A stretch of DNA of 64,000 nt. Origin: Paraspadella gotoi (lineage: Eukaryota > Animalia > Chaetognatha). Position 1 is the first letter of the stretch. Each line of letters begins with the position of its first letter. Shown in pieces: positions 9,486 through 53,057 of the stretch. The notes beneath the pieces were generated by a model. That model was not told the origin of the DNA. It was given only the letters and a program-made list of their open reading frames with translations, and made no database searches. The position numbers and the translations under genes are program-made. The DNA is taken from the NCBI GenBank assembly GCA_051294375.1, contig CM119271.1, positions 5,118,724-5,182,723 on the forward strand, written 5' to 3'.

Positions 9486-9489
9486 TTGA

Positions 9490-14874: not shown

Positions 14875-17056
14875 TCATCGCCCCGTCTTTTCGTCGTCCC
14901 TCGTCGTCGTCGTCTCTCTCCTCCTCTCTTCGGCGTCCAAGATAGCCGCGGCTCGAAACGCCAGATGATGGTTCAAGGGGAGGGAATAATAAGGACTCAG
15001 CCAGAAGCGTTTGTCCTGTTAGTAATATATATAAATATATATAAATATCTATATATAAATATAAACAAAAAAAATTCAACTACTAACTTTGAAATTGCTG
15101 AGGGAAATTTTTTCCAATTCGACCTTGAACATGGAATATCCGACCGTTCTAAATTGAGTTAGTCTGTGTCGTCTGGGCCTGTCATGACTCAAGACGTCTT
15201 CGAACAAGTCTGTCGTTATAATAATAACAATGATATTTACATAGTACTACATAAATGTAAATCTCTCTCTCTCTCTAAAAACCGACCTGTATTCGTCAAA
15301 CGTTGAGCCACCAATCTCTTGGTTATTCCCTTACATCTGGCGCTTTTTTTGACGACGACGAGCCTCTTATCATCGTCATCAACTCCTCCTCAAAGGGCCA
15401 GGTCCTGGCGACGTATCCGTCGGGATCCCCAAAAGTGGCCAGAGTTTCCAAGGAATAACATTTTGGCTTGAGGGATACGCATTTGTACAAAAATCCGGCA
15501 CCGGACTCGTCTGTTATTTTAAAAAATGAAATGAAATAAAGTAAAAGGGAAAAAGGGTGAAAGAGAGAGAAAGAGAGTGAGAGAGAAAGAGAGAGAGTGA
15601 GAGAGAAAGAGAGAGAGAGAGAGAAAAAAAGATTTTTTTCTTTCTCGCACCTTTTAAACAACTGAGTCGATTCCTGTTATAATCCCTCCACAGACGTAAT
15701 AAAGGCATCCTGTCCTTATTTTCCAACCAATATGGATGAGTTTCTTTGGGACTATAAATGATATAATTATATATTGTACCAATTTCATAATATAAATAAT
15801 CTAATAATGATAATTCAATAATCAATTATTATTATTTATTAGTCTTTAACGTCCAAAATGAAACATAGATTGGCCCAATCGCACCAAAACGAAGCCAGTC
15901 GGCTCTCGTATCGAAAAGCCAATACAAACGAATCCTAAATTATTATTATTTATTAAGTAGAATATTAATCCCCAAAAAAATCGGCTCATCGTGTCATTTT
16001 ACTGTAATCTCACGATCACGTCGGTCCTTGCTTTGTTAAATACTCTTCTTAAATTCATTTGGAAAAATAAAATATTGTGAAATTTTGAATTTTCCAATAT
16101 GATACCTGGATAATTAATTAATTGATTAATTAATTGAATAATTAAATAATTTCTGCGGTAAATAAAATACCTCCGACCATTATCGGTTTGTTCAAATTTT
16201 GAGACATTGCTTTACCTATAATGATAATAATAATAATAATCCAAAATGAGTTTATCCTGCTGCCGCCGCATCGCAATAATCGTGACCCATCGACTCATCG
16301 AGTCGTCGGGTCTCTCGAGTCGCGACTATATACTTAGTAACTAAAGCCTACCCCCCTCTCCCTTCAAGGTGAGTACTATCGCAAATCGATCTCGGTACTC
16401 GAATAGTCGCGAACCGAGGGCGTCACTCGATGAGCCAAGGTGCCATGATTAAAGAATAAAGTTGGTAAACATATTATCACGATGATAAAAATACATAGAG
16501 ATTGGTAAAATCTTGATAAATTAAATGTGTGCTGCCATCGTCCTCAGACGATAAAGGATCGAAGCCCACTTCGCGATTATTGGCAACGGCGTAGCGCTCA
16601 GAAACTTCGCATATGCCTCCGCGAATCATGCGATTGTACGTTAAATACTGAAGGGAATCGGCTTTGCTAAATAATGGGATTTCCACCTTGGTCAAGGACA
16701 GAAAAATGTCGAGACTGATTCCTGCGAAACAGTAATAGTGGGTCGGCGAAATGCCGTGAAGTTTTATCGTGTTTTCTATAAAGTATTCGAAAACTGCTTC
16801 TAAGGTCAAAGTGTCTATCGTATTGTAAAATAGAATTATTTGACCAAAGTTGCTAAAGTTGAACATACGATAGATGGCGAGTGTTTTTTCGTAATCTTAT
16901 CGACTGCAAACTTCCTTGGACATATCGTCGGTAAATTCCTCGATGAACGGAAGGTTGGGATCGCTCAAACGGTCCAACGAAAATGCCGAATATGGCATTT
17001 TTATTTTTTGTAAAATTTGCATAAAATTTTGCCCTTTAGCTTCCCCATAAGTTTCC
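14875..17056 (-). pseudogene. Intron-containing protein-primed family B DNA polymerase (Polinton/Maverick/adintovirus type), copy 1, decayed
   Basis: Exons give KMPYSAF..DTLTLEAVF..PTHYY..IRGGICEVSERYAVANN..YQDFTNLY / GKAMSQ (internal deletion) LNKPIMVG / ..NDT / DSFVL..LDVKDY / PKETHPY..CLK / DESG..LKPKCYS..CKGITK / ..KISLSNFK / DKRF..LPLNH; stop at 14875. Confidence 0.9.
16283..16447. mobile_element. MITE-like imperfect hairpin inside a PolB intron
   Basis: ctcatcgag/ctcgatgag and tcgcgactat/atagtcgcga inverted pairs. Confidence 0.45.
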
Positions 17057-18119
17057 ACCTATGACCTATGACTACACGATTCTACGGCGATGTTCATCTG
17101 TACATCGGAATCTCCCAAAACCCTTTCTACACACTGGTGCCATCTATCGAAATTTTCCCCTAATAGTTCTACGCTAAATCTATTGAAGAATGATCTGTAA
17201 CCTAATAAATTTATTAGGAAATCTTCCCCCTCTTCCCAATTACTAAACTCTACCTTACTCAGAATTTTATATGATATAGTATACATTTCAAATATATCCC
17301 ACATAAGAGAGTAAGAAAAACCGGTAGAAAAATGTATCATGTTGAAAAACTGTTAGTCCGGTTAAGTCACATACTGTAGAAACGGGGTCCGATTCAAACA
17401 CACTTTGTCTTTTATTTCTTTCTCGCTATCTCTATCTCTCTTTTGATTTTCTCTCGCTATCTCTCTCTCTCTTTTATTTGAACTCGGCGAACTCGTTGAA
17501 GTCGAGATAAGAGATCTTGAGATCTTTTTTTGAGTTTGATCTTTTGTTTAAATTATTGAGTTACTTAAGTACATCTACAAACCAAGGTATAATTATATTA
17601 TCTTTTGTTTAAATTTTCTTTGACTCGAATTTTCTTTGACTCGAATAATCTTTTTAAGTACAATCTTTTAATTACTCTCTCTCTCTCCTCTCTTCTCTTT
17701 CTCTCTCTCTCTCTCTCTCTTTTCTCGATCTTTCTCTCTGTCCATTTTTGCACGTGAATCACACCTGATTTTTGAAAATGGATTTGAGGATTTGAGTAAA
17801 TACAAACATTAAACATTTTGATGTCAATCGTATCTAAAAGCTTTTTACAATGCTTATCAGGATTGTTTGATTTGAGATTTAACAGTAGTTACTTTTTTAG
17901 ATTTAAAAAAATTAAGATATAATATCGTTAAAATGAGTATATTAAATTATAAAAAAAAACAATGACACAAAAAATAAATGAATGATTAATTAAATATATC
18001 AATTATTTAAAAAATTAGCCAGCGTAAAAAACCCGTGATTTTATTTAAAAAATAAGAAAATTTTTAAAATTAAGGGAAATATTGAATTAAACGATTTAAG
18101 AGAAAGAATTAATTAAAGA

Positions 18120-19918
18120 GAGCTGGTGATGTCGAAAAGCACATCGTCATCACTTCGTTTAATTCTTCTCCAAATGTTTAACTCAATATTTCCTTTTAAA
18201 TTAATTTGGCTAATCGGGGGTTTTTGATGCTGGCTAATTTTTTGGGGGAAGGGATAAAAGATGAGAACATATTTACATTGTGGGTTGCAAGGGGGGGAAA
18301 TTTATTTCCTCTGGTTCTTCCTCTTCCTGTTCTTCAACCAAATATTTGACGATTTTAATTGTCTTTTTTCTTTTACATTTTTCTTTACCATTTTAAAATA
18401 ATAATAATGAAACTTAAATACATAATTTAAAATCATCAAATTACCCAGAGAAAGAGTTATTAACATCCAGTTTGTTGAAGACTTGGACACTGGGGATGGG
18501 TAGGATGAGCTGGAGGAGGAATTTGCAATCGAGGTCGCCTGTGACGCAGATGACGTCGCCGGGGTCGATGATATCGACATTGTTTTGTTTACCGGCGACG
18601 TCATAAACGTCGGCGGCCTAGACGAGGTCGGTGTAGTTGTATCCGTTTGCACCCTCGGGGACGACGCCGAGGGTGCTGAAGATGCCGGGTCTTTTGATGT
18701 GTTACTTGTAGATTTCGGCGACGCCGGAGCGGTGCTGCTCAACGGCGCCGACGAAGAACTTGGCGCCGACGAAGAACTTGGCGCCGGGTCTCTTGATGTC
18801 CTACTCGGCGACGCCGGAGCGGATGTGCTCAACAGCGCCGACGAAAAACTTGGCGACGCCGGAGCGGTGCTGCTCAACGGCGCCGACGAAGAACTTGGCG
18901 TTGGGTCTCTTGATGTCCTACTCGCCGACGCCGGAGCGGATGTGCTCAACGGCACCCACGAAGAACTTGGCGACGCCGGAGCGGATGTGCTCAACGGCGT
19001 CGCAGCTTTCGAGGTGGCGGACGAAGATCTTGGCGACGCCGGAGTGGTTGTCTTTATCGGCGCCGAAACCCTTGACACCGCAGACGAAGTATTTCCCAAC
19101 GCAGTTGTGCTTAACGGCGAGGTTGTTGTAGTTGAGGTGGTTGACGCCGGAGCGGGTGACGTGCTCAACGGCGTCCAAGGTGATGACGACAACGGCGCCG
19201 GAGCAGATGACGAGCTCAATGGCGCCTGTGTTCGGGACGTCGTCGTCGTCCATGACGACGTCGCCGATGATTCTTTTTTAATAATTCATTGTGGTAAAAA
19301 AGGGTTAATGGGGACGGAATGAGAATAGATTGAATAAACTGGGAGGGGAATTTGATTAGCAACGTTAAGAGGTAATAAATGGGGGTTAAGATGGACGAGG
19401 TGGGGTGGGAGGTGAATATGATAGATCGAGGGGATGAGTAATGTAAAATGGTAAGCTGTATTGTTAAGAACGGACAATATGGGGTGTTTTGGTTAAAAAT
19501 AATTATCGCTCGGGTTATGATTTGGGAATTGGATTTTGAATTTCATCATTGGATTCATAAGCGGAATCGGAGTCTGAATCCATGTTGAAGGTTATGAAAA
19601 AATTTTTTAGTTTAGAAAAATGAAATAACAAAAAAGTGAAAACGAGGAAGAGGAAGAGACAAAATAAAAACAATGAAAAGAGACTTTCATCTTGTTTTTT
19701 TTATGATAAAGAAAAAAAACATTTTTTGGTATTTCATTTTTTTATTTTATAAAAATAAAAACTGGGTATAATTATATTAACAATAATAATGAATGAACTT
19801 ACTTTTTGGAGTCGTAGTTTTTTTTGAATGCTGCGTAAAATGATGCACTTTTGACGGGTTTAATTGACCCGAAGTAAGAGAAAAGAAGAAGACAAAAAAG
19901 AACAAAAGTAAAATGCAT
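18120..19918 (-). pseudogene. Spliced type I membrane mucin-like glycoprotein gene of the element (left arm)
   Basis: Signal-peptide-like exon MHFTFVLFCLLLFSYFGSIKPVKSA (19918-19803, gtaag donor); S/T/P repeat exon; TM NWMLITLSLGNLMIL..; tail with KNPRLxQINL. Confidence 0.65.
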
Positions 19919-19937
19919 TTTAATAATGGGATGAAGA

Positions 19938-19980
<43 letters not shown>

Positions 19981-20789: not shown

Positions 20790-21300
20790 ATGAACGGAGA
20801 ACACATTTGCATTTGTAACATCTGCCATTTAGGTTTTAATAAGACTAATAAACGTTGCATTGGATGCGTTCAAGGTTTGAGTTAATTGATAAATATATAA
20901 AATTATTTTTTTTGAATAAATTTAAATTATATAACTGTTTTGCAGGACATTTATATTGTAAGGAATGCATTGATAAATTACAAAATTTATTCAACGGACC
21001 CATATCTCTTATGTCCACTTTGTAAAACACCTTTTGAAAAGGTGTGTAAAAACTGCGGCAGTTTTGTCTATCAACTACAAGTTTATAATCACGAAGTTGA
21101 GGATTGCTCAGAGTATATCGCCCAGTTAAAAAAAGAGAATAAAGATTTGAGGTAATTAAAACAAATTATTATATAATTGATAGGTTAAATATTTTTGTTA
21201 TATTTTTTTGAAATTATAATCTTTAAGAGAAAAATTGGAAAAGATTTTTCAACGACAAAAAGAAAAAAGAGACAATCGTTTGAAAAAACGCTATCGCCGA
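20790..21300 (+). pseudogene. Spliced RING-finger gene of the element
   Basis: TATAAA at ~20720; CNIC..CVQG|HLYCKEC..CPLCK across an intron at ~20875-20945; one frameshift. Confidence 0.65.
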
Positions 21301-21778
21301 GAAGAAAAAGAAAATGGCAACTCAAAGTTCTAACAAAAGGTAAGAAAAAAGTTATATGAAAAGGTTATGGTTAAAACTTTAAAAAATATCTTTTGTTGAT
21401 TTTATTTTTTATTTTTTTTATTATTTTATTTATTAATATTTAAAAAAAATAGCGATGAATATTATTAAAATATTTTTTTTTAAAAAAAGATGGGCCGAAG
21501 ACTTGGAGGAAGACGAGTTCGAGATCGTTCAAATGGGTTCGTCTTCTCCAATCTGTCGGAGCTCAACAACATCAACAGCATCAGCTTCGTCAGAGATATG
21601 CAAATAAGATAGGTTTTTATGTGTCTTTTAAAAAAAACAGATATGACAATGCTCCGTCGGGGAAACGAGTGATGATTTCTCACAAGCGCGAGGAATCAGG
21701 TATAATTTTAAAATGATATTGATTAAAATTAGTTATACGATAAGATAAGCTTTTTTTGTTTTTTGAATTTTTAGCTCG

Positions 21779-22240
21779 GTGATAAAACCATTATCACAAT
21801 ATTGCTTTGTTCATTACAAAAAATCCGAGGGATATTTCAAAGTTACCAAGGAACGTTTTGTGGGTCTGGTTCGTCTGAGCGCGTGCAAAAAGCTTCTGGT
21901 CCGCTTAAGCTTTTGGTCTCTCACGAAGAAGCGCGCAAACTCGTTGAGATGTGGGACGAGGGGGACTTAAAATCAAATTTTGAAAAAAAAACAATCTTTG
22001 GCCTTATCAGTAGATTCGCTTGCAGGAATTAAAATTCCAATTTCTGAGCATTTGGCTTACGCTATTAGCGTTTTTCGTCCTCAAACCTCGGCGGTTGCCA
22101 AGGCGACGATTCAACTAAAACCGTATATTTACGAGGCTCATAGTAGCACATTGTTTTTTTGTTCTCCGGTTTGCTATGGATTATCCTTGACTAAAGAAGA
22201 GCTGATTTCTCTTCTCGATTTTTTTCGTTTTGAATTATAA
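21779..22240 (+). pseudogene. Element gene with two internally similar domains (possibly PC4-like ssDNA-binding)
   Basis: Frameshifted; LKLLVSHEEARKL and GLSLTKEELISL helices after beta-rich segments. Confidence 0.45.
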
Positions 22241-22571
22241 AGGAGTTAAATGAAATTGCTTTAGCAATTTTCTTTTAAAAGAAAAATATTTTTTTTCTTG
22301 AGAGAAAAAATTTAATTATGAGAAATTGATTGATTGATTGATTGATTTTTTGGTTTTTTGGGAATATTTGATTATGGGAATATTTTATTATGGGAAATGT
22401 GATTATGGGATGTGATTAAATATGTATTAATTTTTTTAATTATAAAAAATGACAACTAATCATTAGCAATATTATTTAACTTCTTAAATAATTCTTAATT
22501 ACAAAAACTAATTAAATATTTTTTGATCAAATGAATTTTTATCATATTTTTTAGATTTAAACAAAAAAAAA

Positions 22572-23051
22572 ATGGCTGAAAGAGATCAAGCATTGGACGG
22601 AGGTTATTCGGTTAATCATCAACCGATTAAAAGGAACTATTTGACGATTAAGATGTTTCAAGTGGTTGAACTGTTGATTCTCGTAAACCGAATTTTTTCG
22701 AAAAAGTTCGTACCCATGAAAAAACATTTTAGAAATGTTCAAAATGACTTTAGCACCCTGATTCACGATGAAAAGATAAACAATAGGGGTTGCATAACGG
22801 ATATGCAAGTACGGCGATACACCCAACAGAGACACAGACGTTTTAGCGAAATTGAGGATTTAAAAGAACTAACCGTCACTTGTGGAAATGAAGAAGAAGT
22901 GGCGTATGAAAATAAAAGACTGATTATGGAACATCGAAAACAGTTTTTTAATGTGATTGACTTTGAAAACTTAAATATTAATTATTTAAAAAATCTTTTA
23001 AATTTATTAGAACCGGTTTTAATTACTGATTTAGAGTGTATAAAAAAATGA
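22572..23051 (+). CDS. Element hypothetical protein (159 aa)
   Basis: Intact ATG ORF; homologous decayed copies at 9560-10049 and 30128-30420 (-). Confidence 0.7.
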   Translation: MAERDQALDGGYSVNHQPIKRNYLTIKMFQVVELLILVNRIFSKKFVPMKKHFRNVQNDFSTLIHDEKINNRGCITDMQVRRYTQQRHRRFSEIEDLKELTVTCGNEEEVAYENKRLIMEHRKQFFNVIDFENLNINYLKNLLNLLEPVLITDLECIKK

Positions 23052-23584
23052 TTAGGACTTATAATTACGATGGTAAAGAAGAAGAAGCTCAATCAAAAAG
23101 AGCGTTATTTTCACTTTTACTCGAAATGGGTTGTGAAATAAATAGATTTTGCGATATTTTTGTCAAGTATATTATAGCTACTCCTTTTTATGTTGCGATT
23201 AAAACTACGCACACATTGAGTGAATATCAATTTAATTTACATCGATATTCCTCACTTTTTTCTATCGAAAATTATAATAAACTTTTAAGAATTAAATTAA
23301 ATTTTTCGAATGATATGGAAATGATTTGTAATTTTTGTTCTTTTTATAAATACGATGTAAGCACGAGAGAGAAATTGTGTGATTGCGTAGTTGGTGAGTC
23401 TGAGGTTCAAGACTATTTTGATTTAGTATGTGATTTAAAGGATGCCAAAATTTTACCGCTTGAGGAAGAAAATATTGTGTTTTTTGACCCTGAAACTTTA
23501 ATCGAATTTTATATACATCGTCGTCGTGAAAATGGTTTTTCTGAGATAGATACGGTAGATTATAATAACATTATATCAAACTAA
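23048..23584 (+). CDS. Element hypothetical protein (~178 aa), ATGA-overlapping the previous ORF
   Basis: Open frame MIRTYNYD..; N-terminus also present inverted at ~9490-9570. Confidence 0.6.
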   Translation: MIRTYNYDGKEEEAQSKRALFSLLLEMGCEINRFCDIFVKYIIATPFYVAIKTTHTLSEYQFNLHRYSSLFSIENYNKLLRIKLNFSNDMEMICNFCSFYKYDVSTREKLCDCVVGESEVQDYFDLVCDLKDAKILPLEEENIVFFDPETLIEFYIHRRRENGFSEIDTVDYNNIISN

Positions 23585-23727
23585 TATTTTTTTTATATGT
23601 AAATATGTATATATCTGTTTTAGTTTTATTAACTCAATTTAAAAAAAAAAATGAGTGACAAGAAAACAAAAAACAAAAAACTGATCAAAGCCTCCGTGAT
23701 GATGATGATGAGTGATGTGTAAATTTT

Positions 23728-24060
23728 TTGAGTTTAACTCAAAATGACGTGGACATGGACGACGCAATGGTGATTTCTAAATCGATGAATGGAGAAGAGG
23801 AAGAAGAGATGATCGTGGATGATTTAAAGGAGGGAGAAATGTGCGACAAGGCGGTTCGATCGGATGAATTAATAGATGAAACCAACATGGCAGTCATCGA
23901 AAAAAAACTCTTTTATTCGTATCGAAGGACTTGATAAAGTTGAAAGATTTCTTGATTTTTTGATTTATAACTATTGTGAAATTGCTGCATTATATCCTTG
24001 TTACTGTGAAAATTGCAGAGCCGTTTGCCAATCTTGTTATCCCCAAGAATAAAATTCAAA
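23728..24060 (+). pseudogene. TIR-adjacent gene with C-terminal CENCxAVCQSCxP
   Basis: Homologous to 38016-38285, 39780-40034, 41853-42122 (NxAVIEKKL..LDFxIY). Confidence 0.6.
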
Positions 24061-24933: not shown

Positions 24934-25600
24934 TTAATCGTCTTTCTTTGCCCTCTTATTCGGGCTCGAATGCTCGTGATCCTCTTCGTCTTCATCATCA
25001 CCATCCTCCTCACTCCCTCTTTGACGCGTCCTTTCTTCCTTGGCCAAGCTCATCAAAGATTGTAACTCGACCAAGGATAAGTAAACCGTCCCGTGGCTCA
25101 TCCCCACGTTCTTTGTTTGACCGGTTGCGGGCGTAAAATGATACAATCTTTGGAAAATATATAATTTTTATTAATATTTTTTTATCAAGATAGACTAATA
25201 GATAACAGAAAAAAAAAGTACCTTAATTGTATCGTCGTGAAAGCGACAACGAACGGGAGATAAAAATTTTATCCCCCGTTACATTGTTATAACCCGACGT
25301 CTCGCACGTGCTATATGTAAATAATTTTTTAAAATTTTATATATTTTCCTTTGTTATAACCGCAAAATAAAAAAAATTCAACTTTGAAAATGATCGATGT
25401 CGGGACGTAGACTATCTAAGTACCGACGATACAATTATCTTCAAATTGTAGATGACCAAGAACAACCTTGGGGTGGCGCGGTAGAAGTGGAGCCTGACCC
25501 GCCTGAAGCTCTCCCCGAATCGTACTTTTCTTTTTTGATAATGTAATGAAACGGCTTACGGATGGCCACCGCGTAGCCGGATAATGGAATTGTCATTGAT
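24934..25600 (-). pseudogene. Spliced paralogue of the 21779 family; second copy 31330-31930
   Basis: MTIPLSxYAV..KYDSG..LTFEELDAL and YHFTxxTGQTK..GTVYL.L.E.QSLM in both copies, with gt..ag introns. Confidence 0.55.
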
Positions 25601-26274
25601 CTGGATAAAGGGGGAGGGGGAAAAGGTATAATGTGGGAATAAGAAAATTTGTGAATTCATTCATAATTCATTCATTCATTAATAATCTTACCAGATCATT
25701 TTGACGGCATCGTATTTTGAATTTTTTTCTTTAATGGCTTCCAAGGACAAACTAGTTAAAAAGAATAGATAAAAATGTATTACATTAAATGTCTAATGTC
25801 TCATGTAATAAGACGAGAAATAAAAATGAAATGACATATTTCCATATTTATTTATTTTACTTACTGAACTTCTTCATTTGCTCCAAAACGACTTCCTCCC
25901 CTCTTTTTTCCGAGAAAGTGGGCCATTTTTTTCTTAAAGGAACTTCTTCTCAATCGTTTTACCTTTTGTCTACAAAGAGGAAAAAAATTAAATTAAGTTC
26001 TAAGTTGTATAATACATTCAAAATTACCTTAAAATTATATTTTCTATTTTTAATGAATTAATCGCGTCTATCAGTTGAACGAGTTCAACATCCCTAGTTG
26101 TTCGATTAGATAGCGTATATACAAATTGAAATGATTTTACAATGAACTAGTGATGTCAAAATGATATCATCATCGTCTTCATATTCGTTTAATTCCTCTC
26201 CTAAGTTAGATAATTCTGTATTTTCTCTTGTGTCAAATTTATTTGGCTTAATCTAGGGTTTTTTACAGTCGCTA

Positions 26275-26525
26275 TTTTTGTTAGCAAAAACCTCAGCCAC
26301 TAATATATACAAAGGCATTGAGGGAGAATCTCCCTGCCTTAATCCTCTATTAACCATTATTTCTTCTGACCAATGACCATTAACTAAAATTCTACTATTC
26401 ACCTTCTTATGTTCGACCCAAAGCCATATTTTTCCAATGCCTTAAAAACAAAACTATGCTCAACCCTATCAAAACATTTTTCAAGATCTAAGAATATTAA
26501 GGCTCCCTCTTTATTATTCAATTCA
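26275..26525 (-). mobile_element. L1/Tx1-like LINE reverse transcriptase fragment
   Basis: GALIFLDLEKCFDRVEHSFVFKALEKYGFG and (other frame) SRILVNGHWSEEIMVNRGLRQGDSPSMPLYILVAEVFANKI. Confidence 0.88.
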
Positions 26526-28300: not shown

Positions 28301-28599
28301 AAATCATTGTATTCTAGTTGAGTAAATAAATCAAACATTTTGATGTGAATCGTATCGAAAAGCTTTTTACAATGCTTATCAGGATTGTTTGATTTTACAT
28401 TTACAGTAGTTACTTTTTTAGAATTAATTAAAAACTAAGATATAATAACGATAAAAATGAGTATATTAAATTATAAAAACAATGAGACAAAAATCAATGA
28501 TTAATTAAATATATACAATTACCTAAAAAAATTAACCAACATAAAAAACCCTTGATTTTATTAAAAGAATAAGAAAATTTTTAAAATTAAGGGAAATAT

Positions 28600-38010: not shown

Positions 38011-38015
38011 GGTGT

Positions 38016-38566
38016 TTATTTCACATGAATGTTATTTTTTAGGTAAACATGATTGACAAACAGCACCACAATTTTCACAATGATTGGGATACAAAGCAGC
38101 AATATTGTAAAATTGATAAATGATAAAATCAAGAAATTTTTGATGTTAGTTAGTCCTTGGATTTGAATAAAAGAAAGTTTTTTTTCAATGACTGCATTGT
38201 TGGATTCATTCATTAATTCTGCGGGTGGATAATATCCGTATGGTTTGATGATTAACTCGGTTTCATCTTCTAACGTCAGGTCCATGGTAAGTTTGATTTC
38301 AAAGTATTTTCTTCATAGACAAAAGTGTCTTCTGCTTCGAAGGTTGTGCAATCGAAGTTATCAGGATCACAGAAGAACTCGTACAGTTTATCGAAAGGTC
38401 CATTTTTAACTAAATGCTTTAGTTCTCTGAATGGTATTTGAATCGAGCACATAGCAAAGATTGGTTCTCTCTGATGAATTTGCACGAACTTGACTTTCTT
38501 GTTATTCATTGCACAGAAATAAACGTCTTCGCAAATCTCGAAGGCCTTTCCCTTTTTAATTTCCAT
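38016..38566 (-). pseudogene. TIR-adjacent element gene (frameshifted); copy at 41853-42403
   Basis: MEIKKGKAFEICED..DLTLEDETELIIKPYGYYPP..; Cys-rich tail shared with 23728-24060. Confidence 0.6.
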
Positions 38567-41445
38567 TTTACTTTAATTAAGAAACAAAATTGAAAAATCA
38601 TATAATTAAACAAATCAAAAACGCAAATCAATACAATTATTTACAATGATTTTACTATTCTAAATCTAAATCAATACATATTTATAATTGAACAATAAGG
38701 GGGAGCATCCATGATGGCAAAAACTCCCCCCTCTTTGTCACTCGAGTCTACCTCCTCACCCATCCTCACCAACTCCTCATCATCTTCAATCAACACTCTC
38801 CTCAACTCCATCACTCCTTCCCTCACCCTAATCTTCTCGGGCTCTCGGGTACATCGTTCTCCCCGATGTGATGCAGGTGTTTGGGTTTACCCACATCACA
38901 CGATGAGAGATCCGTCTCGTAGAGGCTGATGAAAATATAGAGAAAAAGTTAGTTTGAATTGTAAGTTTTAAAAATAAAGTTTTATAATCTTACATGGAGA
39001 TTAGACCTTCTACATATAGTAGGTCTTGCGCGTTTGCCCGGTCGGTCTTGTTGACCGGGCGCCCCATGAAGAATGATGCCCTTAGGAGGCACCATTGGGT
39101 TGGGGGATCATGGGGCCGCAGGAGTAGGGGAAATTTTTTTCCTCCTCCCCGATTACGTAATCTTCCATCCTCTCAAAAACATACATCTTCTCAGAGATGT
39201 ATGTTTTAAGTCTTTAAGTCTTTAACGCTTTCTAGGCAAACCATGTCTGGGACATGGTTTGCCATAGCTTCTTCATGAAGCTTTTTCCAATCGATATCTG
39301 CCATCTGTTAATATAAATTTTTACATTCAATCAGATTCATAGAGTTCGAGAATCTTATTACAATGATCAATAAAAAAATTAAGAAAAACGCTAATGTTGA
39401 TAAAACTTTTAACTACGAAATTTAAACAAGAATATTCTGGGTCTGGTCCTCCAAGAAACAAGATATCAAAATCTTTAGCATCGTCTTTAATCCATAGTGT
39501 TGCCGTTAGTCCTTCGCATAGTTTACACTCGAATTTTTAGAAGTTGGGAGATCGATTTGGGTTGAAAAGAAAATCAGAGATAATAAAAAACGGGGTCTGC
39601 AGCTTGATGTAGAACCGGGGCGGGGACTGGAGCAATTTCTTTAATTTTCCATCGCTATCTCTCTCTTTTAATTTTCTCTCGCTATCCCTCTCTGATTAAA
39701 GTTCGATCTTGAGTTTAATCGCAGGTGTTTATTTCACATGGTTTTTTACAAAGTAAACAAAAGTAAACACATCACAATATTATTTTTTAGGTAAACAAGA
39801 TTGACAAACAGCACCACAATTTTCACAATGATTGGGATACAAAGCAGCAATATTGTAAAATTGATAAATGATAAAATCAAGAAATTTTTCAACATTGGTT
39901 AATCCTTGGATTTGAATTAAAGAAAGTTTTTTTTCAATGACTGCATTGTTGGATTCATTCATTAATTCTGCGGGTGGATAATATCCATATGGTTTGATGA
40001 TTAACACGGTTTCATCTTCCAACGTCAGGTCCATGGTAAGTTTGATTCAAAGTATTTTCCTTCATAGACAAAAGTGTCTTCCGCTTCGAAGCTTGTACAA
40101 TCGAAGTTATCGGGATCACAGAAGAACTCATACAAGAGATAATAAAAAACGGGGTCTGCAGCTTGACCTAGAATTCGGACGGGGACTGCAGCTTGATCCA
40201 AAACCTGACACGGGGACTAGATCACTTTCCTTTTTAATTCCCTTTAATTTCCTATCGCTATCTCTATCTCTCTTTTAATTCTCCGTCGCTATCCCTCTCT
40301 GATTTTAAACTCGAGTGGTCGATCTGAAAATACGTAACCGTTTTTGAATTCGAATTATTGATAATACTTAAGTACAAATGACGAATTTTTACCCTGAGAA
40401 TTTTCCATATGATGAACTAGGATTTCGATTACATTTACAGTAGATACTGTTTACAATGAATTAAACACCTTTGTTATGACTACGAGAAATAATATAATTA
40501 TTAACATTTATACAGTGAACATAAAAAAAACAGAACAAGAACATACAATTACCCAAAAAATTGACCACCGTAAAAAACCATAGATTAACCTAAAAATAAA
40601 TTTGGTTCAACAAAGGGAAAATATAATATTTTCAAATATGATTTAAGAGAAGAATTAATTAAAGAGAGCTGGTGATGTCAAAAAGCACATCATCATCATC
40701 TTCATTTAATTCTTCTCCTAAATCGTTTAATTCAATATTTCCCTTTAAATTAATTTGACTTAATCGGGGGTTTTTGGACGCTGGCTAATTTTTTGGGGGT
40801 AGGTATAAAAGATGAAAACATGTTGACTTTGTGGGATGCTAGGGGTGGGAAAACTATCTCCTCCGGTTCTTCTTCCTCTTTGTCTTCATTTAAAATATTT
40901 GACGATTTTAATTGTTTTATTTCTTTTACATTTTTCTTTACCATTTTAAAAATAATAATAATAATAAAACTTAAAATAACAATTAAAATCATCAAATTAC
41001 CTAGAGAAAGAGTTAGTATTATCCAATTTGAAGTAGAGTTGGACGCTGGGAATGGGGTAGATGAGAAGGAGGAGGAACTCGCCTCTGAGGTCGCCTTTGA
41101 CGCCAATGACGTCGCTGGGGTCGATGTTATTGAGATTGTTTTGTTTACCGGCGACGTCATAAACGTCGGCGGCCTGGACGAGATAGATGGGATGGAAGAT
41201 TCCGGTGACGTCAAGGACCCGTTTTCCTTGGACAATGACGTCACCGGAGTAGTTTTATCCTTTTGCACCCTCGGGGACGACGCCGAGGGTGCTGAGGATG
41301 TAGATAAGGAACTTGCCGCCGGAGCATTTGTGCTCAACGGCGCAGGAGCCTTTGACGTTGTACTCGACGAAGATCTTGGCGCTGGAGCGCTTGTGCTCAA
41401 CGGCGCCGGAGCCTTTGATGTTGTAGACAAAGAGCTCGGCGCCAA

Positions 41446-41688
41446 TCCTTGGATTCGGGCCCAAGCTTCATTGGTCAAGTCATCCTTCCCAGGTGCTGCC
41501 GACATGCTCATCTTGGCAAATATTTCATCCACAGTTCGACAAGGCATGTACTTCACAATCCTACTCAATCCCGATCTATAAGAAACGGGAACATACTGCT
41601 GGGAACAAAATTCAACATCCTCCAAGTGATAATGGATCACACTAGGAGCATCCAATGGCATATCCTTACGGACAAACCCCATGTCATT
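41446..41688 (-). other. Flavivirus-like NS5 fragment (duplicate of 37610-37852), in frame with the mucin-TM ORF 40750-41751
   Basis: Same motifs; ..EAWARIQG|LAPSSLSTTSKAP.. Confidence 0.85.
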
Positions 41689-44446
41689 AGAGAGATAATA
41701 ATAAACGGGGATTGGAGCTTGATCCAGAACCCGAGGCGGGGACTGGATCACTTTCTTTAATTTTCCGTCGCTATCTCTATCTCTCTTTTAATTCTCTGTC
41801 TCTATCCCTCTCTCTCTGATTAAAGTTCGATCTTGAGTTTAATTGCAGGTGTTTATTTCACATGAATGTTATTTTTTAGGTAAACATGATTGACAAACAG
41901 CACCACAATTTTCACAATGATTGGGATACAAAGCAGCAATATTGTAAAATTGATAAATGATAAAATCAAGAAATTTTTGATGTTAGTTAGTCCTTGGATT
42001 TGAATAAAAGAAAGTTTTTTTTCAATGACTGCATTGTTGGATTCATTCATTAATTCTGCGGGTGGATAATATCCGTATGGTTTGATGATTAACTCGGTTT
42101 CATCTTCTAACGTCAGGTCCATGGTAAGTTTGATTTCAAAGTATTTTCTTCATAGACAAAAGTGTCTTCTGCTTCGAAGGTTGTGCAATCGAAGTTATCA
42201 GGATCACAGAAGAACTCGTACAGTTTATCGAAAGGTCCATTTTTAACTAAATGCTTTAGTTCTCTGAATGGTATTTGAATCGAGCACATAGCAAAGATTG
42301 GTTCTCTCTGATGAATTTGCACGAACTTGACTTTCTTGTTATTCATTGCACAGAAATAAACGTCTTCGCAAATCTCGAAGGCCTTTCCCTTTTTAATTTC
42401 CATTTTACTTTAATTAAGAAACAAAATTGAAAAATCATATAATTAAACAAATCAAAAACGCAAATCAATACAATTATTTACAATGATTTTACTATTCTAA
42501 ATCTAAATCAATACATATTTATAATTGAACAATAAGGGGGAGCATCCATGATGGCAAAAACTCCCCCCTCTTTGTCACTCGAGTCTACCTCCTCACCCAT
42601 CCTCACCAACTCCTCATCATCTTCAATCAACACTCTCCTCAACTCCATCACTCCTTCCCTCACCCTAATCTTCTCGGGCTCTCGGGTACATCGTTCCTCC
42701 CCGATGTGATGCAGGTGTTTGGGTTTACCCACATCACACGATGAGAGATCCGTCTCGTAGAGGCTGATGAAAATATAGAGAAAAAGTTAGTTTGAATTGT
42801 AAGTTTTAAAAATAAAGTTTTATAATCTTACATGGAGATTAGACCTTCTACATATAGTAGAAGGTCTTGCGCGTTTGCCCGGTCGGTCTTGTTGACCGGG
42901 CGCCCCATGAAGAATGATGCCCTTAGGAGGCACCATTGGGGTTGGGGGATCATGGGGCCGCAGGAGTAGGGGAAATTTTTTTCCTCCTCCCCGATTACGT
43001 AATCTTCCATCCTCTCAAAAACATACATCTTCTCAGAGATGTATGTTTTTAAGTCTTTAAGTCTTTAAGTCTTTAACGCTTTCTAGGCAAACCATGTCTG
43101 GGACATGGTTTGCCATAGCTTCTTCATGAAGCTTTTTCCAATCGATATCTGCCATCTGTTAATATAAATTTTTACATTCAATCAGATTCATAGAGTTCGA
43201 GAATCTTATTACAATGATCAATAAAAAAATTAAGAAAAACGCTAATGTTGATAAAACTTTTAACTACGAAATTTAAACAAGAATATTCTGGGTCTGGTCC
43301 TCCAAGAAACAAGATATCAAAATCTTTAGCATCGTCTTTAATCCATAGTGTTGCCGTTAGTCCTTCGCATAGTTTACACTCGAATTTTTAGAAGTTGGGA
43401 GATCGATTTGGGTTGAAAAGAAAATCAGAGATAATAAAAAACGGGGTCTGCAGCTTGATGTAGAACCCGGGGCGGGGACTGGAGCAATTTCTTTAATTTT
43501 CCATCGCTATCTCTCTCTTTTAATTTTCTCTCGCTATCCCTCTCTGATTAAAGTTCGATCTTGAGTTTAATCGCAGGTGTTTATTTCACATGGTTTTTTA
43601 CAAAGTAAACAAAAGTAAACACATCACAATATTATTTTTTAGGTAAACAAGATTGACAAACAGCACCACAATTTTCACAATGATTGGGATACAAAGCAGC
43701 AATATTGTAAAATTGATAAATGATAAAATCAAGAAATTTTTCAACATTGGTTAATCCTTGGATTTGAATTAAAGAAAGTTTTTTTTCAATGACTGCTTGG
43801 ATTCATTCATTAATTCTGCGGGTGGATAATATCCATATGGTTTGATGATTAACACGGTTTCATCTTCCAACGTCAGGTCCATGGTAAGTTGTATTTTCCT
43901 TCATAGACAAAAGTGTCTTCCGCTTCGAAGCTTGTACAATCGAAGTTATCGGGATCACAGAAGAACTCATACAAGAGATAATAAAAAACGGGGTCTGCAG
44001 CTTGACCTAGAACTTCGGACGGGGACTGCAGCTTGATCCAAAACCTGACACGGGGACTAGATCACTTTCCTTTTTAATTCCCTTTAATTTCCTATCGCTA
44101 TCTCTATCTCTCTTTTAATTCTCCGTCGCTATCCCTCTCTGATTTTAAACTCGAGTGGTCGATCTGAAAATACGTAACCGTTTTTGAATTCGAATTATTG
44201 ATAATACTTAAGTACAAATGACGAATTTTTACCCTGAGAATTTTCCATATGATGAACTAGGATTTCGATTACATTTACAGTAGATACTGTTTACAATGAA
44301 TTAAACACCTTTGTTATGACTACGAGAAATAATATAATTATTAACATTTATACAGTGAACATAAAAAAAACAGAACAAGAACATACAATTACCCAAAAAA
44401 TTGACCACCGTAAAAAACCATAGATTAACCTAAAAATAAATTTGGT

Positions 44447-46460
44447 TCAACAAAGGGAAAATATAATATTTTCAAATATATCCCAAGAATTAAATGAAAA
44501 AGAAGATGACGATAATGTACTTTTTGATATCAAAATGTTGTGATGATCAAAAAGTACATTATCGTCATCTTCATTTTCATTTAATTCTTGGGAAAGATTT
44601 GAAAATTCAATATTTTCTCTTGGTTGAACCAAATTGATTTGGCTTAACCTAGGGTTTTTAACCGTGGCCAATTTTTTGGGTTGGGGAAAAATGGGGAGAA
44701 CATATTTACACGGGGGGAGGCTTCGGCATCTTCTTCTTCTTCTTCTATCCTATGTAATGTTTGTTTGACTTTAGTTTTTTTCTCTCATTTGAATTTTGAA
44801 TTTACACTTTTAACTTTTTTAAAAATAACGATAACGAAAATTAAAATAAAAACTAAAATTAACAAATTTCTCCCAGTCCAATTGTCATCAAAATCCAATT
44901 TGAACTATGAAAAGAATAAAAAAACCTGAATTAAGAAAAACGGAAATATGATGATAACATTTAACAATATAAAATATTCACATTAATTTTTTTACTTGTT
45001 CTTGATCACTTGATTTGGATCCTGCCAACGCCGTGACGTCACCGCAGTTTTTGGCGCCCTCTGGTGACGTCATGGCCATGGACGGCGTCGTCTTTGATCC
45101 CGGTGACGTCGCCGATGTAAGATGGCATTGACATCCGGCGACGTCTCAAACGTTGATATGACGATGATGATTGATGACCTCGCTGAAGAATTTTTAGGGG
45201 AGGAGATGAGGGGCCGCCGGTGACGTCGTCGCCCATGGAATAAGGTCCGTGTGACGTCACCGACGCGATGGAGGAGGAGGGAAGGGAATTTGTAGACGAC
45301 AGGACGGATGACGGCCGTGGAGGAGTAGGAGACAGGAGGGCATTGAGGATGACGGACGGAGGATGGAATGGAGGGCATTGAGGGATGACGACCCGGAGGA
45401 TGGAACGGAGGGCATTGAGGATGCGGGACGGAGGGAGGGCGGACCGGAGGATGAGACGGAAGTGGCTTACCGGTGACGTCGTTGCCCATTGAGAAAAGGT
45501 CTGTGACGTCACCGGCGTGATGGAGGAGGGTTGCGAGACCGCGTTCGGGCGATTGCGGCGGACGTATTACGGACGACGTAGACGGGAGGACGGGATGTTG
45601 TTTGGGGTGGTCGGTGACGTCGTTGCCACTGATGAAATAAAAATGGTCCGTGACGTCACCGACGCCGTATTCACGGACGAAAATGAGAATTTAGCCGGTG
45701 ACGTTGTTGTTGGATGGAAGGTGGTTTGCGCCATCACTGGCGTATTCCTTGATGCTTCATTCGTCCGTGAAGATGTCCATGTCGCCGTCGTCGCCCATTT
45801 TGCTAATCAAACCATTGGTTCAAATGGGTTGATAGCGATATGGTGGTGGGGTTGAGGGTTTACGTAAGATGGGAAAATTACTTGTTGGGCGATGTTAAAT
45901 GGGAGTAAATGGGAATTAATTTGGACTAAATGGGCTGGGAAGGTTATAGGTAAAATGGTGGGGGTAAATAGATCGTGGTAATAGGCGGTGGGTTCTATAT
46001 ACTACAAGGCGCGGGTTGGGTTCAATGTTAACGAATCGTCCTAGGGTTGGAGTGTTATTTTGGTTATTGTCGTCCGCGAGCCATAATGCGCTATCGGGAT
46101 GGGGAATTACCATTTTATACCCGCGGTATGAATTTTTTTTTTAGTTTAGTTATCAAGAAAGAGTAGTATGAGGTAAGATGGAAGAGGAAAAAGAAGAAAG
46201 TAAAAACAAGTGGGAATAGACTTTCATCTTGGTTATTTTACACGATAAAAAAAAGAAAAAAATTTTAGGGTATTTCTCGTACATTTTGCGGGAAAATCAT
46301 AAAAGAGTAATACTGTATGAGTAATAACAATCTGTTTCGAACTTTACTTCTCAGCGGCGTTGTTCCAGTGAATGAACGCCGTCGCGGTTTAATTGCGATT
46401 TAGTAATTACAAGAATAGAAAGAGAAGAAACAAAGAAAGTTATTTAAAAGACATTTTTTG
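44447..46460 (-). pseudogene. Mucin-like TM gene copy (second subtype, like 11100-12582)
   Basis: S/T/P exon, TM remnant, ATVKNPRLSQINL tail, upstream HHHIAINPFEP ORF remnant. Confidence 0.6.
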
Positions 46461-47183: not shown

Positions 47184-47615
47184 TCAATCAAATTCATAGA
47201 GTTCGAGAATCTCATTACAATGATCGATAAAAAAAATAAGAAAAACGCTAATGTTGATAAAACTTTTAACCACAAAATTTGAACAAGAATATTCTGGGTC
47301 TGGTCCTCCAAGAAACAAGATGTCAAAATCTTTAGCATCGTCTTTAACCCATAGTGTTGCCATTAGTCCTTTGCATAGTTTACACTCGAATTTTTGGAAG
47401 TTGGGAGATCGATTTGGGTTGAAAAGAAAATCCCTCAAGGATTTTAATCCTACAATGTTTGCCTTTAGATTTTCGACCGTCCACATGAAACTCTTGACAA
47501 TTTTCATTCGATTGTCTTTTTTAACATATTTGATGTTAATGACCGCATCCTTGTTAAAGGAAATGGTCATTCCATGAAAAAGTTTAACAACGTCTCCAAC
47601 TTTTAGTTTATCCAT
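47184..47615 (-). CDS. Element hypothetical protein (143 aa); truncated copies at 39330-39575 and 43175-43426
   Basis: Intact ATG ORF; the other copies are cut by a TIR at gaaaagaaaatc. Confidence 0.7.
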   Translation of the reverse strand: MDKLKVGDVVKLFHGMTISFNKDAVINIKYVKKDNRMKIVKSFMWTVENLKANIVGLKSLRDFLFNPNRSPNFQKFECKLCKGLMATLWVKDDAKDFDILFLGGPDPEYSCSNFVVKSFINISVFLIFFIDHCNEILELYEFD

Positions 47616-48407: not shown

Positions 48408-48556
48408 GATGTACAATCCATTTTATTTTCCTTCTTACCCGTGGTATTGAAAACAGCCCCCTTGGGGACACCCAACCTCATTCTCTTCTCCTTTTCCTGC
48501 ACAATCTCTATCCAATCTTCTCGGTCCAGCAAGTCACCCATATCTTTCCCATATCT
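48408..48556 (-). other. Second, divergent flavivirus-like NS5 fragment
   Basis: YGKDMGDLLDREDWIEIVQEKEKRMRLGVPKGAVFNTTGKKENKMDCT; protein almost identical to 26880-27022 but third codon positions largely differ. Confidence 0.9.
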
Positions 48557-48747: not shown

Positions 48748-48968
48748 GGTAACTTTGGGAGCCAACTTCCGGTTATGCTGATGACGTCATCCACATTCCA
48801 ATATGATGACGTCATCATTCTATTTATAGATTGGTGACTTCCGGTTCCGGTCACTTCCGGTTCCGGTCACTTCTGGTTCCGGTCACTTCCGGTTCCGGTC
48901 ACTTCCGGTTCCAGTCACTTCCGGTTCCAGTTACTTCCGGTTACGCTGATGACGTCACACATTCCAAT
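48748..48968. promoter_or_regulatory. Virus-like enhancer/origin array of ACTTCCGG (ETS-type) and TGACGTCA (CRE-type) motifs; related stretch 8728-8795
   Basis: 16-bp unit ccggttccggtcactt repeated about six times, flanked by tgatgacgtca. Confidence 0.55.
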
Positions 48969-50563
48969 TCTCGCATAAACGCCAAGCTCCTACAATGAAG
49001 TCGGGATGAGGGTCGAACATTAACGGTTTGGTCCAATCCTGCGGTCTGTAAAATAAAAACAATTTAAATGATTAAACTATATAAAAAGAGTAATAATATT
49101 AATATTATTTTTAATTTTGACATTATTTTTAATTGTGACAATATATAAAAACCAATATAATTATTACCCCTCGCTCTCGTCCAGTAACCTCCACGCTTTT
49201 TCAAGCGTCTTCCTAGGCTCGTCCATGACGTCCCACTCCCCCGGCAGGACGACATCATCCCAAACCCAAGAGTCCCCCTGCTCTATTGGTGGGGTGAGGA
49301 ACGCTACAGTAGTCGACTCCCAATCCTCGTCCAATATCACCCCGAAAAGTTTTGTGGGCCAATAAGAGACGACATCAGAGAAATATGTTTACACCTTCTA
49401 GCCATCGGTGATAAGGATAAGCGAAGCGAACTCGAGTGTTTTAATCGAAATCCTGTGATTTTTAATCTGAATCTTGTGATTAAATTGACGAGGATACTTG
49501 AGAATAAAGATTTTGATTGATAGTCTGTTTTTTGCTGAATTAGTAGAGAAACTGAATAATCGACTGTTTTTATTTGAATAATAAACAAATGAACTTTGAT
49601 TGATAGTCTTACTGTTTTTACTGAATTAGTAAAGAAACTGAATAATTGACTATGTCTTTATTCAATAATAAACAAAATGAACGAACGATGAAACTAAAAA
49701 AAACAAAAAGATCAAATAGTATTATATAATTTTCTATCAAAAATCGTTTCCTCTTCTTCTCCTTCCTCCCTTTCACTTTCTTCAATTTTTCTAATTTCAT
49801 TGACCCATTCCCCCAATCTTATGCTCCTCCCTCTTCTTTCTTCTCCTCTTTCGTCCTCCTCCACGATGAAAACGTTTGTTTCTTCTATTTTGCCGTAGAT
49901 AATAGATAGAGATAGATAGATATGAGTGTTTTAATCGGAATCCTATGATTAAATCTGTTTTTAATCTTAATCTTGTGATTAAATTGACGGAGATACTTGA
50001 GAATAAAGATTTCGACTGTTAGTATTACTGTTTTTTGTTGAATTAGTAAAGATACTGAACAAATCGCTCGATAGTCTTATTGTTTTCGCTAAATTAGTAG
50101 AGATGCTCAATAATAGACAACTATGATGAAATAAAAGTTAGCGATTGGTAAACAATAAACAGTCTCGAACCGAGTCTCGCCGATTGCCGACTTAAACAAT
50201 CAGATTGCCAAAAAAAACTCGCTAGTTTTTCTAATCGGTTCATAACAGCTGGGCTGATTCCACGACTCAAACCTTTTTCGCTCGTAACCTCCGGGTCCTA
50301 ATTCCTATCTAAGTTCAACGGGCAAAAAAAATAGCGATTTCATGGGCAGGTCTTCACGTGAAATTGTTACGTGGAAAATACTTAGCCGGCTTTTTGTGAC
50401 CGTTGAAACCATTGAACCTTTTTACCTTTGTCAGATGATAAATATGCACAGTGTTTTAAATTAGTTTTCTAGTTATATTTTCACCATTGTTAAAAAAAAT
50501 TTTATATTTATCAATCATTAAAACGAATTATATCAATTTAATTCCCATAATTTGTTTTTTTTT

Positions 50564-51330: not shown

Positions 51331-51348
51331 AACCCTTTTTTTTTTTAC

Positions 51349-53057
51349 CTTTCATCCTTCCTATCACGGATCTGTTGTGGTCCCTCCATCGTTTCAATAC
51401 GTCCAAACGGTCCAAATTTTCTTTCCAATAGGGGTGAGTATCTTCGGGACTGAAAAAAAAAAAGATGGATGATGGTAGGCTGGTATAGACTTTTTCTTTT
51501 TTACGCAAATAATAGTCATTCTTACTAATCTTTCACGTCTAGTATGAAGCAAAGATGAGCCCAATCTCGCCAAAATGAAGCCAACGGACTTTTGTAACGA
51601 AACGCCAATACGAAAGAATCCTAATTCCCATAATAAATTTTAATTAATTTCTAATAATTTTACATTAATAAAAATTATTATTTTTTTTTTTTTTTTGCGC
51701 TTCTAACCGTATCGTTTTGATGCACGCGCGCGCTAACGTCCGTTCGAGCTTCGTTAAATACTCGTCTCACGTTGAAATGATAGAAAGAAATATTGCAAAA
51801 TTTCGCGTTTTCCAAGACGATCGCTTAATTAATTAATTAATTAATTAATTAAAATTTTTTTAACAAAAAAAAAAAAAATTTTGTAAATTTTTTTTTAATT
51901 TTTTTTTGTTAATTAATTAATTAATTAATTAATTAAAAGTAAATTTTTTTTTTATTTTTCTAACCTCCCATAATTATAGGTTTATTGAGCGTACAGACGT
52001 TTTTTTCAAACTTGATGAAGATCAAAGAATCGCTCAAAATCTTGCAAGAATGAAAATCGGCTCGGTGCATGGCTCGTTGAGCGAGGGGTTTGTCAAAGTA
52101 TAAGCGCACATTGTGTTTACCACGAACATTTTCGATACTCTGTACATAAATAATTTTATTATTAAAATTTGTTATATTATTTTAATATATTACTATACTC
52201 CCCTTTCCGTACAAGGAATTTATCAAAAGCTTGAAATGATTTTTCAAGTAGTCCGATTGGGCTTCGTTTCTCTTCCGAGTAAAATGATCCACGAAAGGTT
52301 CGATATATTTCCTTTGTTGATAGCGAAATCCCATGCTTATTTTTCGAACCTCGTATCCCAAATCGAGACACAACTTCAAAACCATATAATTAATAACGTA
52401 ATCCTTTTTTTCCCCCACGCAACATATCAATTTAGGGTAAATGCCTAATTTTATCCCATATTTTTTAGCCAATTTAACGGTGCGCGGACTCAATTCGTTT
52501 TCGGGAACTGCTCGTTTATCGGCGATGGGAGGGTAACCGCTCATAGAAGAATGCAAATGATCCGGTAAATATGTCGCATTCGACTATGAAACCGATATCC
52601 GCTTCATGGGTCCAATTTTTGTAACGACCGTCTTGGGTCATTACAAAAATTTCCGCGAGTTCCTCCGGAGAAAGACTTTTAAAATCTTTCCAGGGTACAG
52701 GGATATTTCATGGCGCGACCGTACAAATTCTAAAATAATTAAAAAATAGCTAAGAATGATAGAAAGATGAAAAGAGAAAAAAGCGACGACTACTATTATT
52801 ACCGTAAAGTCTTGATACATCAAGAAGCAACTACCGTCGTCCTCCTCGCCCCCCTCCTCTGAGGAATCGAAACCGACTTCGCGATTGTTGGCCCGAGCGT
52901 GACGTTCGGAAACGGTACAAACGCCTCCTCGTATCATTCTTTCATATGTTAAATATTGGAGGGATTCCGATTCGCTGAACAAGGGAATCTCGACTTTGGT
53001 CATCGAGAGAAAAATATCTAGTCCGATACCCGCAAAGCCGTAATAGTGGGTGGGCTT
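51349..53057 (-). pseudogene. Intron-containing protein-primed PolB, copy 2 (divergent relative of copy 1)
   Basis: IRGGVCTVSERHARANN..YQDFT^NLYG..KLLINSLYGK^SIENVR..LNKPIIMG^A..NDT^DS..DY^PEDTHPY..IGRMK^; introns 52730-52802, 52140-52202 (GG donor), 51824-51964, 51621-51707, 51450-51525. Confidence 0.92.

Follow-up and report, generated by a model that had tools for sequence, protein, structure and literature searches.

Polinton-type DNA polymerases, protein-primed family B enzymes (pPolB), are usually encoded by uninterrupted genes. According to the available text of PMC8097293, intact vertebrate Mavericks lack introns, and the 'introns' returned by Genewise are treated as decay; in nematode Mavericks, as far as the accessible part of 10.1101/2022.07.12.499685 goes, the core genes are intronless and host-derived cargo genes alone have introns. 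Spliced genes are not mentioned in the available portions of a nematode polymerase survey (PMC10748475) or of the adintovirus paper (PMC8502044). Again from partial texts, young introner introns have been described in dinoflagellate eupolintoviruses (PMC12166617), group I introns in cryptophyte elements (PMC12220804) and elements without GT-AG borders in Oxyrrhis (PMC12721341), and mirusviruses have been found to be intron-rich (PMC12768974). In the literature that we searched, which excluded subscription papers, Repbase and supplements, no spliceosomal introns were described in an animal Polinton polymerase. Here we analyse a stretch of 64,000 nucleotides (nt) from the chaetognath Paraspadella gotoi (assembly GCA_051294375.1, contig CM119271.1, positions 5,118,724 to 5,182,723 of the forward strand; hereafter the window), which carries two decayed pPolB copies divided by short, putatively spliceosomal introns. 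An earlier note, made from the letters of this DNA, had taken uninterrupted polymerase genes to be the rule in Polintons, which the two Maverick papers bear out for core genes, and had called the present arrangement uncommon. The latter claim stands insofar as the literature searched holds no report of it, and is qualified by the introner introns already published for dinoflagellate eupolintoviruses (PMC12166617, in part).

One exon of copy 2 matched the Pfam family PF03175 (E=1.4e-8), and polymerase motifs A, B and C are all present. Comparison of the long copy-1 exon with 1.84 billion representatives gave 2287 matches at E<=0.001, the best being 38-39% identical and none exceeding 39%. All homologs inspected (5 of 150 in full) showed Polinton-type architecture. 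The annotations of 20 homologs comprised uncharacterized proteins of an aphid relative, wasps and mites, one 'DNA polymerase' from a metagenome-assembled genome and 'hypothetical' entries, most being nameless. A profile built from 39 of the 150 matches, each of at least 1000 residues and with DTDS, placed the exons in order; of 2577 pieces from the six-frame translation of the window, only those of the two copies matched it. When copy 2 was read through with X at the breaks, it was recovered as a single domain (columns 657-1040, E=2e-88). PF03175 itself scored weakly in three of four homologs tested. These results support assignment of the predicted protein to the Polinton-type pPolBs, as the earlier note had proposed. 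The two copies are arranged as follows.

17304-14878, minus strand: pPolB copy 1, pseudogene, profile columns 556-743 and 953-1144
17304-16495, 16215-16171, 16105-15990 and 15934-15840, minus strand: copy 1, exons 1 to 4
15751-15651, 15510-15287, 15209-15088 and 15015-14878, minus strand: copy 1, exons 5 to 8
53054-51349, minus strand: pPolB copy 2, pseudogene, matching PF03175 and the profile as above
53054-52803, 52729-52203, 52139-51965, 51823-51708, 51620-51526 and 51449-51349, minus strand: copy 2, exons

Both copies are dead. Copy 1 lacks its 5' half, has lost about 200 codons internally (within the second exon), and contains three in-frame stops, a frameshift near 15346, two decayed donors and an out-of-phase junction at the site called a' below. 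Copy 2 contains two frameshifts and one decayed donor, and both of its ends are gone. Since contigs from three sequencing runs (X1, X3 and X7) agreed with the copy-1 pieces that they cover without a single difference (0 differences), the decay of copy 1 is real and no assembly error. An inverted repeat (49371-49422 and 53054-53105) brackets the copy-2 segment and forms its 5' break point; its arms match over 36 nt at 94% by BLAST and over about 50 nt by eye.

The interruptions comprise seven introns in copy 1 and, in copy 2, five complete introns and one lone donor, at nine distinct sites. Along the protein these lie at a (DFT^N, with ^ marking the intron), a' (after NLY), b (after LYGK), c (after LNKP..G), d (NDT^DS), e (DY^P) and f (K-D^E), followed by g and h.

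16494-16216, minus strand: copy 1, intron a', after NLY in motif A; 279 nt, GT..AG, junction out of phase
16170-16106, minus strand: copy 1, intron c, after LNKPIMVG; 65 nt, phase 1, GT..AG
15989-15935, minus strand: copy 1, intron d, inside NDT^DS of motif C; 55 nt, phase 0, donor decayed
15839-15752, minus strand: copy 1, intron e, inside DY^P; 88 nt, phase 2, donor decayed
15650-15511, minus strand: copy 1, intron f, in K-D^E; 140 nt, phase 1, GT..AG
15286-15210, minus strand: copy 1, intron g; 77 nt, phase 1, GT..AG
15087-15016, minus strand: copy 1, intron h, before DKR; 72 nt, phase 0, GT..AG
52802-52730, minus strand: copy 2, intron a, DFT^N in motif A; 73 nt, phase 0, GT..AG
52202-52140, minus strand: copy 2, intron b, after LYGK in motif B; 63 nt, phase 0, donor decayed
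51964-51824, minus strand: copy 2, intron c; 141 nt, phase 1, GT..AG
51707-51621, minus strand: copy 2, intron d, inside NDT^DS; 87 nt, phase 0, GT..AG
51525-51450, minus strand: copy 2, intron e, inside DY^P; 76 nt, phase 2, GT..AG
51348, minus strand: copy 2, donor of intron f alone

Sites c, d, e and f are common to both copies. The exons between them (116, 95 and 101 nt) have identical lengths in the two copies, and the lengths of the shared introns differ (65 and 141, 55 and 87, and 88 and 76 nt in copies 1 and 2, respectively). Copy 2 has an intron at site a and reads uninterrupted through a', the converse holds for copy 1, and three codons separate these mutually exclusive sites. Site b falls inside the deletion of copy 1, and g and h lie past the end of copy 2. 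This anatomy confirms the earlier description of two minus-strand copies that share introns at LNKP..G, NDT^DS, DY^P and K^DE, and the seven introns mapped in copy 1 equal the minimum then given.

The introns, of 55-141 nt and one of 279 nt, are AT-rich, with a GC content of 0.05-0.43 (at most 0.34 in 11 of 12) against 0.42-0.43 in exons. All 12 complete introns end in AG and nine begin with GT, dinucleotides whose frequencies inside the introns are 0.047 and 0.033 (binomial P 1e-16 and 9e-12, respectively). The donors without GT are those of d and e in copy 1 and of b in copy 2; copy 2 keeps GT at d and e. Under predicted splicing 11 of the 12 introns are in phase, and every junction tested (five of five in copy 2; six of six, c to h, in copy 1) joins consecutive profile columns with zero gap. 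The earlier claim that splicing restores the motifs in phase therefore holds except at a'. Introner-type sequence families were not found when the 12 introns were compared by BLAST all-against-all and across the window, which gave short AT-rich matches only. Intron a' contains a GC-richer inverted-repeat insert (RNA fold z=-2.6) that occurs once in the window and is perhaps a small transposon. Taken together, the DNA evidence supports the view that these interruptions behave as spliceosomal introns.

To place the copies in time, their exons were compared with each other and with the homologs. The copies share 116 of 171 residues, and identity to the best homolog is about 32%. In a FastTree phylogeny (182 columns, 41 sequences, midpoint root) they form a clade with support 1.0 on a stem of 1.3 substitutions per site. 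No donor or host clade is inferred, because their nearest neighbours in the tree are poorly supported. Between the copies, differences reach 0.825 at silent sites (pS) and 0.16 at amino-acid-changing sites (pN) over 164 codons in four blocks (Fisher P=5e-37); one short copy-1 piece was left out of both the tree columns and this test. The silent sites are saturated, and these values indicate that purifying selection acted on the exons in both lineages. With pS at 0.825 against pN of 0.16, the copies represent two long-selected lineages that already had introns c to f, and the shared introns likely predate their split.

The introns are unevenly placed. The 270 codons before motif A are intron-free, and all nine sites lie in the following 395 codons. 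Conservation around the nine sites averages 0.68, compared with 0.51 across the whole range of columns (P about 2e-4; 7e-4 leaving out a'), in a test that takes no account of proto-splice sequences being common in conserved motifs. The intron sites in motifs A, B and C are the most conserved, that of motif C ranking in the top percentile. The regions of motifs A, B and C are those occupied by inteins in other family B polymerases. Targeting of catalytic motifs is one reading of this bias, and codon context is another.

The stretch was present in nine runs with one organism label from three studies, none of them on record as RNA. Contigs of four runs were compared with window positions 14500-18300, the region of copy 1, and no spliced joint was found among those aligned there. 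A second alignment, over the accessory genes of the units, recovered no contigs. A relative 82-86% identical to the window was found beside the window's own copy. Its depth was 435-481 in X3, against 21-37 for window-identical records; 81-102 in X7, against 9-11; and 13.7 in X1, against 11-13. The figures for X1 and X2 are nearly equal, so that these may be one data set, and one sample may be the source of the window. An X7 contig contains extra letters spanning the stretch deleted in copy 1. The relative parts from the window sequence where introns a' (loose end at 16493) and g (15213, in X3) border their exons, as would a copy with an intron of different sequence at the same site. Because silent sites are saturated and pN is low, and because the relative breaks at two of these borders, the introns belong to a lineage and not to one dead copy, in agreement with the intron-rich lineage put forward in the earlier note. 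The differences in depth between samples suggest a related family that is amplified or freely replicating in some of them.

Further searches yielded no closer relative. Word-index protein searches with a copy-2 exon and with a caspase exon of the neighbouring host gene found nothing, and one metagenome scan was without any relative. Two IMG/VR loci were rejected as phage-like chance matches, and a metagenome locus at 34% identity does not match the polymerase profile.

Both copies lie in a tangle of repeats that extends from about 8.9 to 55 kilobases (kb) of the window. A repeat of 110-150 nt occurs in six imperfect palindromes and two single arms, none assigned to a strand.

11036-11272: imperfect palindrome, left bound of the copy-1 unit, interpreted as a junction of two element ends
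18009-18261: imperfect palindrome, right bound of the copy-1 unit, folding as a long hairpin (DNA fold z=-10.5)
28581-28790, 36737-36989 and 40551-40819: further palindromes
44391-44690: near-perfect palindrome, arms 91% complementary and 17 nt apart, left bound of the copy-2 unit
26149 and 33725: single repeat arms

Each polymerase copy is on the minus strand inside a repeat-bounded unit, to the right of a repeat arm and a mucin-like gene, which supports a link between the polymerase gene and the repeats. We infer that the palindromes are head-to-tail junctions of element ends, 3.8-10.5 kb apart, and that the units are tandem deleted derivatives. Full-length Polintons measure 15-25 kb and are flanked by a 6-bp target-site duplication; in the window most ends directly adjoin another end, and no intact insertion is flanked by host DNA on either side at once. 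The repeat pattern was not found among the viral contigs searched. Segments 36725-40998 and 40543-44868 form a 4.3 kb tandem duplication of 94.7% identity beside an N gap, which may be real or an assembly duplicate. The units and their surroundings hold the following further features.

18305-19285, minus strand: Ser/Thr/Pro/Ala-rich mucin-like open reading frame (ORF) with a hydrophobic C-terminal stretch, no Pfam family
20790-24050, plus strand: cluster of small accessory genes, namely a Cys-rich RING-like gene (GT..AG introns, 71 and 76 nt) followed by orphan genes
31380-32752, minus strand: RING-finger gene with four GT..AG introns (136, 182, 71 and 72 nt), zf-RING_2 at E=2.8e-4, below cut-off
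26402-28430, 37566-37847, about 41440-41690 and 48408-48553, minus strand: flavivirus-type NS5 fragments (Pfam)
12665-13810, 30500-31484 and 8369-8801, minus strand: intronless orphan ORFs with other codon habits between the element genes, possibly captured virus fragments
10313-10786, 38279-38572 and 47187-47615, minus strand: small orphan genes, PC4-like by eye
48780-48980, minus strand: enhancer-like block with six of the window's seven CCGGAAGT motifs, three TGACGTCA motifs and a TATA box
316-5870, plus strand: host MALT1-like paracaspase gene with Ig exons and a caspase-like exon, MALT1 being its only PDB matches

The mucin-like ORF adjoins the repeat arm in every unit, recurring at about 11300-12200, 29071-29982, 37100-37600 and 44900-45700. 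Copies of the RING-finger gene lie at 25051-26108 and 34097-35128, and divergent copies of the orphan genes of the accessory cluster at 9484-10790 and 38000-40200. These neighbour genes resemble the polymerase in their introns and in their constraint. By eye, seven of seven junctions are short GT..AG introns (71-182 nt), and four blocks show purifying selection (pS 0.48-0.87, pN 0.11-0.18), two of them in the accessory cluster (pS 0.87, pN 0.13-0.17).

A Pfam scan of 171 ORF pieces recovered RING fingers and the flavivirus-type NS5. The proteins closest to the longest NS5 piece are 35-42% identical, mostly 930-1070 residues long, and lie on contigs of 3.1-3.6 kb, which is the size of a jingmenvirus first segment. 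RNA-virus pieces appear to have been captured into the DNA element more than once. The intronless orphan ORFs tested had no Pfam or PDB match, and single-sequence folds of two orphan ORFs had predicted local distance difference test scores of 37 and 30. A beta-rich ORF (30500-31192) considered as a capsid was rejected, having no PDB match and a low-confidence single-sequence fold, and a PC4 identity of the small orphan genes found no support in Pfam, solved structures, the Atlas or a single-sequence fold. The motifs CCGGAAGT and TGACGTCA correspond to ETS and ATF/CREB sites, as in adenovirus enhancers. Elsewhere in the window, a tandem repeat with a unit of about 33 nt and many small indels occupies 56837-58152, and an apparent frame change near 3300 in the caspase exon of the MALT1-like gene is possibly an indel of the assembly.

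Taken together, these results favour a model, to which we give a probability of about 0.7, in which the window holds two decayed pPolB copies of a Polinton-like, self-replicating animal element whose polymerase domain contained short introns spliced by the host. Membership of the Polintons is probable from two features, the polymerase and the imperfect repeats, and the element may be viral, as the earlier note proposed. In the nucleus, host RNA polymerase II would transcribe the element, and the spliceosome would likely remove six or more introns, one of them in a catalytic motif, before the polymerase is made. As the catalytic DTDS motif is itself split by an intron, no polymerase would form without splicing. 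The polymerase would then copy the element from its ends. At least four introns would have been gained before the two lineages split, the elements continuing to replicate with them, and at least one further intron would have been gained, lost or shifted after the split (sites a and a'). Deleted concatemers would accumulate in clusters, so that the window would be a graveyard of internally deleted head-to-tail units, some carrying captured RNA-virus fragments.

Several observations weigh against this model. GT is missing from three donors and the a' junction is out of phase, so that neither copy could yield a full protein, and removal of the introns from RNA is predicted from DNA only. Integrase (rve), packaging ATPase, adenain-type protease and capsid families were not found by Pfam in the 171 ORF pieces, a scan limited by deleted units and short exons and leaving out most pieces below 58 residues and one copy of the 36.7-44.9 kb duplication. 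Facing repeat arms are only 68-91% alike. Finally, the depth of a contig does not give a copy number, and a co-sequenced organism could be the source of the high-depth contigs.

A more far-reaching proposal is that a spliceosome-dependent lineage of Polinton-like animal viruses is still replicating, with introns placed preferentially in catalytic motifs and possibly emptied remnants of homing introns such as mirusviruses have, and with RNA-virus cargo (jingmenvirus-like NS5). We consider it unlikely as a whole; if true, such a lineage would escape ORF-based virus screens and would still be turning its introns over.

The alternative that survives best accepts the introns as real and assigns them to a capsid-less or integrase-less linear replicon, or to another hairpin-ended pPolB virus, that integrates as concatemers. 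The pPolB is indeed the only Polinton core gene recognised, the ends are imperfect palindromes that form long hairpins (z=-10.5 for the one given above) and abut without host DNA between them, the polymerase sits on a long branch and the neighbour genes are orphans. However, all units are internally deleted, with only 3.8-10.5 kb between junctions, so that missing genes prove little, and the closest polymerases are Polinton-type. Polinton ends begin with AG, and so do some of the repeat arms. We regard this alternative as improbable.

It is considerably less probable that a captured pPolB acquired its introns as a domesticated host gene and was later duplicated into the repeat cluster. While strong purifying selection and many introns would fit a host gene, both copies have the same orientation inside repeat-bounded units, and the depth of the relative differs about 1-, 8- and 20-fold between samples. 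The element introns are also short, at 55-182 nt (one of 279 nt), compared with 303-816 nt for six introns of the neighbouring MALT1-like gene. Even lower is the chance that the high-depth relative, and perhaps the whole cluster, stems from a parasite, a symbiont or another organism's virus mixed into the assembly. The relative's depth varies strongly between runs and the window has N gaps, but the cluster starts a few kb from the MALT1-like host gene with its Ig and caspase exons, gap-free between, and the stretch recurs in nine runs of one organism label from three studies. Insertion of introners or AT-rich junk into copies already dead, never needed for replication, is largely refuted and the least probable of all: although both copies are dead and, for dinoflagellate eupolintoviruses, the available part of PMC12166617 finds secondary insertion compatible with about 90% of the element-introner pairs tested, four identical sites in silent-saturated copies are incompatible with independent junk insertion, exon lengths are identical with exons under selection, and nothing more than short AT-rich matches links the 12 introns in sequence.

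The model of a host-spliced Polinton-like element bears on how such elements are found. Polinton surveys and virus screens seek long uninterrupted ORFs and take interruptions for decay (PMC8097293, available text). An old, selected, intron-rich lineage would be missed or dismissed as a fossil, and the lack of any relative above 39% identity among the 1.84 billion representatives fits such a gap in screening. The two lineages, with their uninterrupted outgroups, also form a compact system in which to study how introns are gained and turned over, and the leaning of the sites towards conserved columns allows the choice of sites by new introns to be tested in a fast-evolving element.

Adenoviruses are pPolB viruses that depend on host splicing and have ETS/ATF-type enhancers and membrane-protein accessory genes; most of their introns are found in leader sequences or between ORFs and not within polymerase motifs. 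The Polintons and Mavericks of vertebrates and nematodes, in the available texts, share with the window the order of pPolB motifs and a majority of degraded copies; their terminal inverted repeats have a possible counterpart in the imperfect repeats of the window. They differ in that their core genes are intronless, whereas the polymerase domain of the window has nine intron sites. Their integrase, ATPase, protease and capsid families were not found among the ORF pieces of the window scanned with Pfam. Adintoviruses, in the accessible part of PMC8502044, are likewise animal pPolB elements, both integrated and apparently present as free high-coverage DNA in whole-genome data, and their divergent 'Beta' class scores weakly against PF03175, as do three of the four homologs tested here. 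The adintovirus polymerase has an N-terminal OTU-like domain, and adintoviruses have a virion module; both window copies lack the 5' half of the gene, and no virion module was recognised among the ORF pieces scanned. Mirusviruses, as described in the available part of PMC12768974, also have short GT-AG introns (peak about 80 nt) in core genes, which have been interpreted as a sign of nuclear reproduction, and some of which target key genes through intron-encoded homing endonucleases; however, they belong to an unrelated phylum of protist viruses, and the introns of the window, at 55-279 nt, are too short for an endonuclease ORF. The dinoflagellate eupolintoviruses (PMC12166617, in part) resemble the window in being Polinton-like elements with spliceosomal introns. 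While those introns form young transposon families, inserted mostly after integration and mostly outside coding regions, the predicted introns of the window are unrelated in sequence, apparently old, and interrupt an animal element's core gene that has been under selection.

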